The position numbers are program-made. 40,488 bases of DNA, taken from IMG/VR virus record IMGVR_UViG_2700989521_000020; one strand, 5' to 3'. Shown here piece after piece: positions 12,001 to 15,000 of this stretch; position 1 is the stretch's first letter, and each line of letters opens with the position of its first letter. Origin of the DNA: a virus. Taxonomy: Duplodnaviria > Heunggongvirae > Uroviricota > Caudoviricetes.

Positions 12001-15000
12001 GAGAGCTGGCGATCAAACGTTGGGCGTCAGGGTATGTGAGAATTTTTGACGAGGTAAATTTTCGATGGAAACCGTATTGCATGCACTGAAAGCGATGGGT
12101 AAAGCCAATTCTGTTGAACTGGCGGCGCGGCTTGATATCAGCCGTGAAGAAGTTCTCAACGAACTGTGGGAACTCAAAAAAAATGGTGTTGTTGATAAAA
12201 CGGGTCACACCTGGTTTCTGGCTGTCGAAGGTGAATCCGGGGTAACCGAAGGGCAGGCACTACAATCTGAAGCGCCGGATGTGGTAACCGAAGAGGTCGC
12301 TCCAAAAGTTAGCGCTGACATGATGATTGAGTTTATCGCTCAGGAGGGGGCTAAAACCTGTGAAGAAATAGCGGGTAAGTTCGGAGTTACCACTCGTAAG
12401 GTTGCTTCCACTTTGGCGGTAGTAACAGCAACGGGGCGCCTGGTGCGCGTGTCTATCAAGGGAAAATTCCGTTATAAAGTGCCTGACGTCGAAAACGGCG
12501 ATTTGAGCGCGTCATCATCGCAGGATGAGAATATCACACACGAAGCAGAAAACAGCGCGTCAGGCGACGAACTGAATCGCTTTCCGTTGATGTCAGAGGG
12601 CACGGCAAAGGCCTGTACAGATGAGTTTATCCGGGATGTTCCGTCGTTCACCGAAAAATATGCTGGTGCAGTGACCCTTCCACCTCTACGGGCCGCCAGT
12701 CGTGAACTTCGTCGCGCCAAAAAACAGGTCCAGAAGTGGGAGCGTGTCTGTGCTGCACTACGTGAGCTGAATAAACACCGGGAACTTGTCATGCAGATTA
12801 CCGATTCATCCAGCAGTATTGCATCGGAAAAGTGATAACTGGAGAGCTTATGGCAAAAGTATTTACACCCGAACAGCGGGAAGAACTGAAGGCACGTATT
12901 GTGGAGCTCGTGCGCCTGAATGGTCGGGGAACGTTCAGGCAACTGGCTACTGAAACCGGAGTCAGCAAGACAGCTGTCAGACGTTTGTCCAGAGAACTGG
13001 TTGTCAGTGGCGCTATATTCGACTCAGGTTATGGTTTATTCCCGTCTGATCAGGCGCGTAAGGACTGGCAAAATGCCCGCAAAAAACTCTCGAGAGCAAA
13101 GGCAAAGAAACCGGTTGTTATTGACCCTGGTCTTATCCGGGCATTACCTGATGGGGAAATCCGGCGCTACGACAGACGCTACAACATAATTTGTCGCGAG
13201 TGCCGTAACAGCGAAACGATGCAGCGTGTGCTGGCATTCTGGCGGGGGAGTGCAGAGGGATTGATGTTCTCCCCGTCGTGAATGACTGGGGCTTACGTGT
13301 TCAGAAAAGTGATTCATATAGAGGCTGAATCTGATCTTTTTTGTTCACGTCTGGCTGCCACCATTGCAGGCAGAGTGAAGGCGTAGACTAAAAACATTTC
13401 GGTAAAACTCAGGATCTGGCTTGCCTTAATTGGTGTGAAAACTTCATCTGTATGAACTGCTTTATTGGCATCAATTCGTACAATATGAGCCCATTCCTTC
13501 ATCTGTTCAGTGATCAGCCCTTTTTTGTAAATCATCTGAATACGTTGCGACAGCGATTCTTTTCCTGCTTCATCGCCGAGCAGTTTTTTCGTGGAGATAT
13601 CGAGGACTCTGCGACAAAGAATTACCACTGTGTCGTACCGCCTCCTCTGTAAATCCTCTTTTGCCTCAACAAAAGTACGGTCTGCAACCGGGGGCGTATA
13701 TTCTGGTGCGGTAATTTTTTTGACCGCAGGATAGATCTTGCGGAAACGGTACTGGCTATTTCCTGAAATCAGAATATCGAGGTCTTTTTTCTGGCTTTCC
13801 GCCATGGGGCCGTGATAGTGGTCTGATGGGATTTCAACAATAGCAACACCTCCTCGATGACAACTTCTGCATACAAAAGCGACGTTAAAAAGAGGTGTTT
13901 TTTCAATTTGTTTTTCGGCAAATGCCTCAATAACAGCTCGCTCTTTTAAACAGTGTGGGCATGTAATGTCAAAGGAGACTAAACTCATGGATATTCCTCT
14001 CGAAATTAAAGAAATTAACGAAATCATTGAGGTTACTGATCGCCCCGAGTTTACCCTCATGCGTCGTTATGAAACAGGAACCGACGAACAAAAATACATC
14101 ATGGTTGCAGCATTGGCTGTGATGGCGATAGAAAGGGAGCGGAGGGAAAAGGACGTAATGGTTATTCCGGCGAGAAATGATTCACCGGATTTGAGATGGC
14201 AGGATCCGGAGTGGGATGTGGCAATCCGGTGATTGATATTTCTCTGGGGTAAAGCGCCGCCAGAATGACGGCGCGGTAGTGGAGAGTTAAACGAAGCGGA
14301 TCTGGAGTTTTTTCCCTGTAGCACGGGCGAATTTTTTCAGTGTGGCAAATGATGGGCCGCTTATACCTGATGCAAGATTGCTTTCCATTCTGGTGATCGC
14401 AGTCGCTTTTGTTCCCATACGTTCAGCAACTTCAGCCTGGGTTAAGCCTGCTTCTTTTCGTGCTGCCAGCATTTCATCAAGTAGTGCGAATTCGTCGGCG
14501 ATGGCGTCGTATTCTGCTTTGAAAGCCGGATCCTCCATCCATTTGGCTGCCATTTCGTCGTGTGTCATGGTAGGTGTAATGCGTTTACCAGTCATGCTTA
14601 ACCTCCTTCATTCTGGCTTCAGCTTTTTTGCGTTCGGCTGGCGGTGTTTTCTGCGTTTTCTTAATGAAACTATGCAGCATAATGATGCGTTTCCCTGTCA
14701 GAGTGCAGTAAAAAACACGTGCAATCCCATCGTTGCCTTTAATTCTGAGTTCGAAAAGCCCATCACCAAAGGCGCTGGTATGAGGTTCTCCGAGATTGCT
14801 GCCGTATACCTTCATACGTTCAATGAGATGTTTGTATCGGACACGCATACTCAATGGAAGCTGATCGACTTCCAGCCGGACCTCTTCACTGTAGTATTCG
14901 ATAGTGTAGTTCATAGGTATCAACATAACAAATTTGTTATATGTATTCAAGGACTGTACTGTGTTGACGACAACACATATCAAGCAGACAGTCATGCTGT

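Follow-up and report, generated by a model that had tools for sequence, protein, structure and literature searches.

Introduction

RAZR, formerly PD-T7-4, is a ring-activated zinc-finger ribonuclease (RNase) of Escherichia coli UMB1727 (PDB 9Y9C) in which a Cys4 zinc-finger domain at the N-terminus precedes a C-terminal DUF4145 domain working as a HEPN RNase, and whose defence activity requires R146 and H154 (Zhang et al., Nature 2026, PMC13017515). On its own, RAZR forms linear oligomers and is non-toxic even when overproduced; its active form is a 24-mer ring assembled around phage ring proteins (Erf-like recombinase or portal proteins), and the activated enzyme cleaves RNA non-specifically, which results in abortive infection. 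The zinc-finger domain is both the specificity determinant and the most variable part of the protein. Described only in 2026, RAZR was presented as a single-gene system on chromosomal islands (PMC13017515). Here we report on a distant, prophage-borne variant of this newly characterised kind of RNase: a 224-amino acid (aa) protein encoded by a virus of the class Caudoviricetes (IMG/VR record IMGVR_UViG_2700989521_000020; the entire 40,488-nucleotide (nt) stretch is called the window hereafter). Its gene is interlocked, start codon to start codon, with a divergent gene for an 81-aa protein. This conserved partner is a new element: the literature searched contains no description of the partner gene or of the interlocked start codons.

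DUF4145 has been placed in the HEPN superfamily; its arginine/histidine motif is mostly kept, and fusions to zinc ribbons as well as links to defence are on record (Anantharaman et al. 2013, PMC3710099). The 224-aa protein exceeds the Pfam threshold of the family. Most described members, however, are fused to restriction or helicase components or belong to restriction-modification operons, whereas the protein studied here is a small stand-alone prophage form.

Shigella phage POCJ13 (NC_025434/KJ603229; a window coordinate equals the POCJ13 record coordinate minus 51), a Shiga-toxin-converting lambdoid phage, matches positions 13200-14400 of the window with 100% identity. The 224-aa gene is a lone reversed gene within the early-right operon of this phage (pR: cro-cII-replication-DUF1627-DUF977), and both genes of the pair are annotated by RefSeq and by PGAP. 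The features discussed below are collected in Table 1.

Results

The 224-aa protein combines a zinc ribbon with a HEPN-fold DUF4145 domain

An earlier note on this DNA, made from the sequence alone, had described the 224-aa product as a zinc ribbon joined to a DUF4145 domain of the HEPN superfamily, encoded against the phage early operon and provided with its own ribosome-binding site. The coordinates of both open reading frames (ORFs), the cysteine motifs (C10-P-H-C13 and C40-R-S-C43), the sequence IVRIDANKAVH (residues 169-179), the AAGGAG motif of the 81-aa ORF and the overlap of the two starts were all found as claimed; the reversed orientation is confirmed, and a GAGAGG motif precedes the start codon of the RNase-like gene by 7 nt. 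The profile search that the note had suggested as a check places the protein in DUF4145 (PF13643, clan CL0291) with 35.6 bits against a gathering cut-off of 23.1 (E = 9.7e-9, profile positions 11-87 of 88), and the membership of this family in the HEPN superfamily agrees both with the literature (PMC3710099) and with the fold of the modelled protein.

When 5.8 billion proteins were searched, 83 relatives came up; almost all are 212-225 aa long, almost all come from Enterobacterales, and every one (83/83) has a precomputed PF13643 hit. Four cysteines, R171, N175, H179 and a C-terminal FTE.F..Y.F.LP.M motif are invariant across an alignment of 31 homologues; the segment linking the zinc ribbon to the helical domain is the most variable part of the family alignment. 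In the AlphaFold (AF2) model (predicted local distance difference test score (pLDDT) 89), a three-stranded ribbon (residues 20-27, 33-40 and 46-52) is followed by a helical domain that matches HEPN folds, with HepT/HEPN toxins among its top structural neighbours. Pfam, the family alignment, the model and the fold searches thus concur on a zinc ribbon followed by a HEPN-fold DUF4145 domain, the ribbon being predicted from the invariant cysteines and the model. Compared with the C-terminal zinc ribbon of RPB9, i.e. the fold invoked for the zinc-finger domain of RAZR (PMC13017515), the family profile gave a weak match (E = 0.23).

RefSeq names the product 'DNA binding protein', and phrog_1305 carries the same label. 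That the protein would be a DNA-binding regulator rather than an RNase is nonetheless highly improbable: zinc ribbons do often bind nucleic acids, but the label is an automatic family name, and no match to a helix-turn-helix (HTH) or other DNA-binding family was found. The label is a mislabel. A defence function is suggested by distant homology, as follows.

The 224-aa protein is RAZR-like in architecture

The earlier note had not connected this architecture with its characterised prototype, RAZR. The RAZR sequence was rebuilt from homologue-search fragments, in which R146 and H154 fall at the positions given by PMC13017515. Both proteins are of similar size (224 aa versus 219 aa for RAZR), lie on mobile DNA and consist of a Cys4 zinc ribbon beginning with CPHC, a linker and a C-terminal DUF4145/HEPN domain with an R-x3-N-x3-H motif of equal R-to-H spacing; the HMMER and hhalign alignments both place RIDANKAVH on the RIVGNQAVH of RAZR. 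When the two family alignments were compared by hhalign, the match (E = 2.6e-5, probability 75%, 25% identity) was confined to the HEPN domain, of which it covers 88 columns. The family profile aligned with the RAZR chain of 9Y9C at E = 0.078, with the R/H motifs in register. PADLOC, another check suggested by the earlier note, did match its PD-T7-4 model (PDLC04109) to the protein, although only to residues 84-183 and at E = 1.4e-3 (16 bits), which falls short of convincing; the model therefore misses convincing detection of this gene.

Besides these likenesses, the 224-aa protein differs from RAZR in its zinc-ribbon domain, which is followed by about 25 extra residues, and in its genomic setting. 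RAZR-type genes adjoin integrase genes or insertion sequence elements, are co-directional with their neighbours and have no divergent small gene, whereas the 224-aa gene is reversed within a lambdoid early operon and has, in most lineages, an interlocked partner. Because a full-length match to the family model is lacking, we have not filed the protein as a RAZR family member: it is RAZR-like in architecture and probably also in mode of action, while standing outside the RAZR family as now modelled. An identity with DS-38, a validated HEPN plus zinc finger system of DefensePredictor, was considered and rejected: DS-38 is WP_001313577.1, the product of a 1101-nt gene (about 366 aa).

The 81-aa partner is a protein-coding gene

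The reasoning of the earlier note depended on the 81-aa ORF being real, and it is. When genera are compared, the small gene has a ratio of non-synonymous to synonymous substitution rates (dN/dS) of 0.14-0.27 while its synonymous sites are saturated, which is the signature of a protein and not of a conserved leader or promoter: the ORF is a genuine protein-coding gene under purifying selection. Its product has a conserved motif, DRPEFTLMQRYE...QK...ALIGKLIEQDR. In the AF2 model, which was built from a shallow alignment, helices span residues 5-16, 20-27 and 33-55 (pLDDT 79-92) and residues 1-55 form the core; the disordered tail that follows is specific to the E. coli form. The protein belongs to phrog_8371, a family annotated as of unknown function, which matches the window protein with E = 5.5e-56 and the small proteins of Yersinia and Enterobacter with E = 1.5e-13 and 7.9e-11, respectively.

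The small gene is easily overlooked. A word-indexed homologue search with the 81-aa protein returned only E. coli proteins of at least 81% identity, an exhaustive search of 1.84 billion representative proteins yielded 6 clusters only, and the distant partners were recovered only by reading the DNA beside the RNase homologues; gene callers sometimes omit the gene (e.g. in locus L023). Together with the failure to match Pfam or NCBIfam, these scarcities are what could be said for a chance frame opposite the leader of the RNase gene. This explanation is refuted by the substitution pattern, and we regard its probability as negligible: 33 distinct but alignable variants share the start, the motif is conserved, and AF2 predicts the core with confidence. 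Of 5,426 complete E. coli genomes, 48 contain the small gene and 36-37 the RNase allele of the window.

Table 1. Coordinates in the window of the interlocked genes, their elements and the adjoining features
Feature	Position	Strand	Basis and remarks
RNase-like gene, 224 aa (POCJ13 gp20, WP_000060692.1)	13314..13988	-	RAZR-like; opposed to the early-right operon
N-terminal Cys4 zinc ribbon, residues 1-52 (C10, C13, C40, C43)	13833..13988	-	Invariant cysteines and model
Pfam DUF4145 match, residues 118-196, core of the HEPN-like helical domain	13401..13637	-	Pfam
Predicted catalytic motif R171-x3-N175-x3-H179 (RIDANKAVH)	13452..13478	-	Invariance; alignment to RIVGNQAVH of RAZR
Partner gene, 81 aa (POCJ13 gp21, phrog_8371)	13987..14232	+	dN/dS, HMM hits at the same position in other genera, AF2, PHROG
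CATG, start codons sharing the central AT	13986..13989		Sequence; common to all partner-bearing loci examined except L014 (TATG)
AAGGAG ribosome-binding site of the 81-aa gene, in codons 4-6 of the opposite RNase gene	13972..13977	+	Sequence; 9 nt before the ATG
GAGAGG ribosome-binding site of the RNase gene, in codons 4-5 of the opposite 81-aa gene	13996..14001	-	Sequence; 7 nt before the ATG
Gp49/HigB-like toxin gene and HTH_3 antitoxin-like gene	14287..14995	-	Pfam Gp49 88 bits, HTH_3 43 bits; annotation
G+C-rich 9-bp hairpin between the stop codons of the HTH antitoxin-like gene and the 81-aa gene	14254..14274	-	-19.1 kcal/mol, z = -2.6

The interlocked start codons are conserved

The two genes start from the same tetranucleotide: the ATG of the minus-strand gene is the complement of 13986-13988 and that of the plus-strand gene is 13987-13989. 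Longer frames exist on both strands (248 aa from 14060 and 88 aa from 13966) and were rejected in favour of the starts at CATG because the homologues of both proteins begin there. In many, though not all, lineages the Shine-Dalgarno-like motif of each gene lies within the first 3-6 codons of its partner.

Conservation of the small ORF beside DUF4145 homologues, a further check named earlier, was found widely. The partner accompanies the RNase gene in 54 of the 80 IMG/VR contigs that carry the latter, and its 33 distinct protein variants all start at CATG; in the 26 partner-less contigs, the ATG is preceded by A, G or T, except in L058. In Enterobacter, Symbiopectobacterium, Tatumella, Rosenbergiella, Yersinia, Photorhabdus and one Zoogloeaceae genome, the same CATG is the start of a divergent ORF, 58-131 aa in length overall and 58-73 aa within Enterobacterales; these ORFs have DRPE[FV]xLxQRYE...QK...ALIGKLIEQDR in common. 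Beside the viral contigs, loci from nine bacterial genera keep the overlap with a homologous small ORF, and about two dozen of the lineages keeping the cassette are less than 85% identical in their upstream DNA. An overlap kept in 54 of 80 viral contigs and in nine genera is not due to chance. The reverse scan, made with the small-protein alignment, gave the same picture: a divergent RNase gene is present at 45 of 54 loci, eight of the others belonging to a single E. coli orphan lineage and one being unclear, and outside the orphan lineage the RNase gene accompanies the small ORF at 27 of 28 loci.

The surroundings of the pair follow a pattern. At nearly all loci, the genes on both flanks are opposite in strand to the RNase gene, and the small gene resumes the direction of the operon. 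Partner-bearing loci of Enterobacterales usually lie between replication genes (DnaB, lambda P, DnaC-like, rep O) and ninB or other nin genes, whereas partner-less RNase genes are placed elsewhere, beside integrase, endolysin or HNH/terminase genes. The outer neighbours vary from locus to locus, whereas the inner junction is constant, and the cassette has a G+C content of 0.42-0.46 compared to 0.50-0.54 for the flanks. In a neighbour-joining tree of the RNase, partner-bearing members occupy the deepest branches; partner-less members form one clade and two single lineages nested inside, and the partner has therefore been lost at least three times. Two further lineages seem to be losing it: in Enterobacter quasiroggenkampii (L014 3960-4003) the start position of the small ORF reads ATA, and in one viral contig (L060 2821-3002) a frameshift divides the small ORF; at both loci the RNase gene is intact.

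A cassette with an RNase identity of 35% is found in a betaproteobacterial metagenome-assembled genome of Zoogloeaceae (L016 3601-3996). Its 131-aa partner has a long non-conserved C-terminal extension, and the cassette adjoins a 1022-aa protein with a PBECR3 nuclease domain and has no lambdoid early region around it.

Each gene can be found without the other, or with another allele of it

The small gene also exists as an orphan 85-aa form (L005 2985-3239; L032 4001-4258; also L033-L036, L120-L124, L138, L140 and L141). It starts at a GTG four codons upstream, with ATC where the methionine codon stood, and its similarity to the window begins at 13991, directly after the start codon. At these loci an unrelated 166-aa gene (phrog_25397, without Pfam match) and a 300-nt gap stand in place of the RNase gene; a remnant of the RNase gene was sought in the orphan loci and none was found. 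About 130 nt before the orphan small gene lies a reversed 76-aa ORF with a strong GGAGGA ribosome-binding site and no Pfam match (L034 2901-3131, minus strand; the same DNA at about 3700-3870 of L032), so another backwards-facing gene may fill the place of the RNase gene.

The RNase occurs in E. coli as a second allele (P0002; L021 6001-6675), which has CPSC in place of CPHC and is 70% identical in aa sequence to the product of 13314-13988. The difference is unevenly distributed: codons 1-200 are 48-87% identical at the nt level, and in the protein residues 61-120 are least alike (20-55%), while the last 24 codons are 100% identical and the adjacent small gene 98.4% identical. From this pattern it follows that the body of the RNase gene was exchanged, with one junction at CATG; as far as the sensor/linker part is concerned, the difference looks like either exchange or rapid diversification.

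These observations bear directly on the meaning of the constant junction. It is possible that the 81-aa gene is an ordinary early (nin-region) gene, functionally unlinked to the RNase gene and joined to it once, the two having since become entrenched neighbours because there is no intergenic DNA for recombination and because separation would cost translation, each ribosome-binding site being held in the codons of the partner. This is the main rival of a functional link, since it explains the constant junction without any shared function, and it is hard to exclude computationally; we regard it as a serious possibility, though not as the probable one. It agrees with the position of the Shine-Dalgarno-like motifs in many lineages, with the occurrence of each gene without the other (partner-less RNase clades and orphan small genes), with the small protein having no recognisable functional fold, and with the swap of the E. 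coli RNase body beside a nearly identical small gene, which means that the two are not strictly co-inherited. It fits less well with the fact that the outer junctions have been reshuffled often while the inner one has been kept from E. coli to Zoogloeaceae, or with the near-constant presence of the RNase gene beside the small ORF outside the E. coli orphan lineage. Furthermore, the breaks that are observed fall exactly at CATG, showing that separation there is possible, and yet separation is rare.

The same data speak to a second explanation, namely that the pair is a toxin-antitoxin system, with the HEPN protein as a constitutive toxin and the small protein as its obligatory antitoxin (cf. 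HEPN-MNT and RnlA-RnlB). HEPN RNases are often toxins, HepT/HEPN toxins are among the fold neighbours of the model, the partner is small and tightly linked, and the orphan small genes resemble orphan antitoxins. We nevertheless consider this very unlikely. The genes are divergent and not co-transcribed, which rules out a coupled stoichiometry; at least three RNase lineages persist after loss of the partner, which is moreover truncated by the frameshift in L060 and has ATA at its start position in L014; RAZR is non-toxic when overproduced (PMC13017515); and neither MNT nor any other known antitoxin fold was recognised in the small protein. The likeness to HEPN-MNT is indeed confined to the HEPN fold: the pair has no nucleotidyltransferase partner and forms no operon, the RNase has an added zinc-ribbon sensor domain, and no nucleotidyltransferase was found among the cassette neighbours (DUF977, the 81-aa helical protein and the Gp49/HTH pair).

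Transcription of the two genes

Owing to the start-to-start layout, neither gene can be transcribed without the transcript passing over the 5' part of its neighbour. The earlier note had concluded that each promoter must lie inside the other gene and that transcriptional interference is obligatory. The first conclusion does not hold for the 81-aa gene, which can be reached by read-through from pR, whose operon runs in its direction; the RNase gene could be reached from the toxin-antitoxin-like operon upstream. Of the second, overlapping face-to-face transcription is unavoidable, but it does not require internal promoters, and none that is convincing was found.

The toxin-antitoxin-like operon consists of the Gp49/HigB-like and HTH_3 genes, which overlap by 11 nt and lie directly upstream of the cassette on the strand of the RNase gene. 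A promoter-like site is present at 15098-15071 on the minus strand, and transcription in the lysogen may enter the RNase gene from this operon. The hairpin located between the operon and the cassette (Table 1), whose fold energy is not significant on the plus strand, is at best a weak terminator because only UUU follows it. In Yersinia and others there is no co-directional operon upstream of the RNase gene, whose transcription there calls for a promoter inside the small gene or farther out. A -10-like TAAACT at position -65, present in 16 of 26 lineages, was rejected as evidence of a promoter of the RNase gene: it is the antisense of conserved E-F-T codons and has no matching -35 element.

Two side observations concern these elements. 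The Gp49 protein has a partial PADLOC match to NsnC of Menshen (E = 3.5e-10), and related prophages carry at the same spot either HigB-like plus HTH_3 genes or RelE plus two HTH genes, which makes it a variable toxin-antitoxin slot. Inside the RNase gene, on the operon strand, a terminator-like hairpin followed by TTTTTT (13565-13583) occurs approximately where lambda has tR2; it is probably due to chance since its fold energy is no better than that of shuffled sequences (z = 0.3).

Other genes of the region

In map order, cI is followed rightward by cro, cII, the replication genes (DnaC-like), DUF1627 and DUF977; then come the 224-aa gene (leftward), the 81-aa gene (rightward) and the HTH and Gp49/HigB-like genes (leftward). 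Beyond this pair lies an AT-rich stretch with two genes without known function, then ant, ninB, rusA, ninH, Q and stx1.

The DUF977 gene (12850-13281, POCJ13 gp19) is named 'LygF' in GenBank, 'Ren-like exclusion protein' in RefSeq and 'DUF977 family protein' by PGAP. The name LygF belongs to this neighbour and not to the RNase gene, and a search of the literature on POCJ13 or LygF brought up nothing relevant. The two RefSeq names, 'Ren-like exclusion protein' for gp19 and 'DNA binding protein' for the RNase gene, look like automatic, unsupported labels.

The AT-rich island (14900-16700; G+C content of 0.28-0.35 versus about 0.50 nearby) contains two rightward ORFs without Pfam match, one of 158 aa with a hydrophobic N-terminal segment (15092-15568) and one of 223 aa (15580-16251), as well as two promoter-like sites at 15177-15243. 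It resembles one more insertion of cargo, placed after the replication genes and before ninB.

Discussion

A proposed switch between lysogeny and lytic growth

The reading that we favour, with some reserve, is that the lysogen makes a RAZR-like RNase, and that the antisense pR transcript and a lytic-phase small protein spare or tune the phage's own development. In the lysogen, the RNase would be produced from leftward transcription, either by read-through from the toxin-antitoxin-like operon or from a promoter in or beyond the small gene, and, if it behaves as the RAZR prototype does, it would sit dormant as an oligomer. Still following RAZR, a ring protein of a superinfecting phage (portal or Erf-like recombinase) would be bound via the zinc-ribbon domain, and this would trigger non-specific RNA cleavage and abort the infection. 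Upon induction, N-antiterminated transcription from pR would run antisense through the entire RNase gene, collide with transcription of the latter and pair with its mRNA. The same pR transcript would carry the mRNA of the small gene, whose product would thus be a lytic-phase protein. Given this layout of transcripts, induction should lower RNase synthesis and yield the small protein. The last step is the most speculative: the small protein would shield phage development from the phage's own RNase, or tune the RNase, in a ren-like manner. For the partner, we thus favour the role of a lytic-phase factor, either of ren-like self-immunity or regulatory. POCJ13 itself encodes a RecT-like protein and a portal, both of which are candidate ring formers.

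Several described systems share one part or another of this arrangement. In lambda, ren spares the phage from its own prophage-expressed Rex exclusion, and its gene maps just after the replication genes, the position of the cassette as well. The likeness with rexAB/ren lies in the combination of a prophage abortive-infection function with an escape gene in the early operon, self-immunity being hypothetical for the 81-aa protein; no sequence or fold relationship was found, however, and rexAB and ren are far apart and do not overlap. Dmd of T4, which counteracts the HEPN toxins RnlA and LsoA, differs in being provided by the attacking phage and not by the element that encodes the RNase, and the fold search detected no similarity between it and the 81-aa protein. 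As regards transcription, the pR/pL pair of coliphage 186 and pIN/pOUT of Tn10 similarly have opposed transcription over a shared stretch, with the stronger (lytic) promoter silencing the weaker one. Those switches have mapped promoters and an overlap that is either short or free of coding sequence, whereas here the overlap includes whole coding regions.

A number of points weigh against this reading. As to the RNase, seven residues separate R171 from H179, compared to R-x4-6-H in the textbook HEPN motif, a spacing that is identical for R146 and H154 of RAZR and seems to fit a DUF4145 variant rather than the textbook motif; the alignment to RAZR is limited to the HEPN part, homology of the zinc-ribbon domains not being demonstrable by hhalign; the PADLOC and PDB matches to RAZR are below usual significance, and a phmmer search of the PDB sequences with the 224-aa protein gave no match. 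As to the partner, Pfam and NCBIfam scans of the 81-aa protein gave no match, and the fold search with its model returned generic helical bundles only. As to the switch, a standard promoter scan of the minus strand between 13989 and 14300 found none, and a relaxed scan across the loci gave inconsistent sites and no convincing sigma-70 promoter for the RNase gene. Finally, the RNase persists without its partner in at least three lineages, at other genome positions, and the partner can live alone, the orphan 85-aa form being common in E. coli Stx-type (Shiga toxin) prophages (255 index blocks). These partner-less and orphan lineages, like RAZR's lack of intrinsic toxicity, argue against an obligatory role of the partner, and the entrenchment of two unrelated neighbours would account for the junction that the switch is meant to explain.

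A stronger version of the same idea, which we put forward as doubtful, holds that the phrog_8371 protein serves solely to antagonise the RAZR-like RNase, being produced only on firing of the early operon, and that its orphan copies are anti-defence genes. The CATG cassette would then be a switch, 'armed in lysogeny, disarmed in lytic growth', operated by antisense transcription and a protein inhibitor, and it would allow a prophage to carry an abortive-infection RNase that would otherwise be set off by the phage's own RecT-like protein and portal. The orphan copies in E. coli Stx-type prophages would, for their part, act against resident RAZR-like prophages.

Significance

The present analysis shows that a distant branch with the RAZR architecture is standard cargo of lambdoid prophages, Shiga-toxin phages included. 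Its fixed place on the map, with the replication genes on one side and ninB on the other, and its interlocked partner, previously unremarked, add to what is new. If the partner acts on the RNase, it would give a handle on how a prophage equipped with an abortive-infection effector keeps this weapon from ending its own lytic growth, and it would be a candidate natural inhibitor; should it prove a dedicated antagonist, ring-activated RNases of this class would have their first natural inhibitor. If it does not act on the RNase, the cassette would be a clean natural case of two genes frozen together by ribosome-binding sites that each holds for the other.

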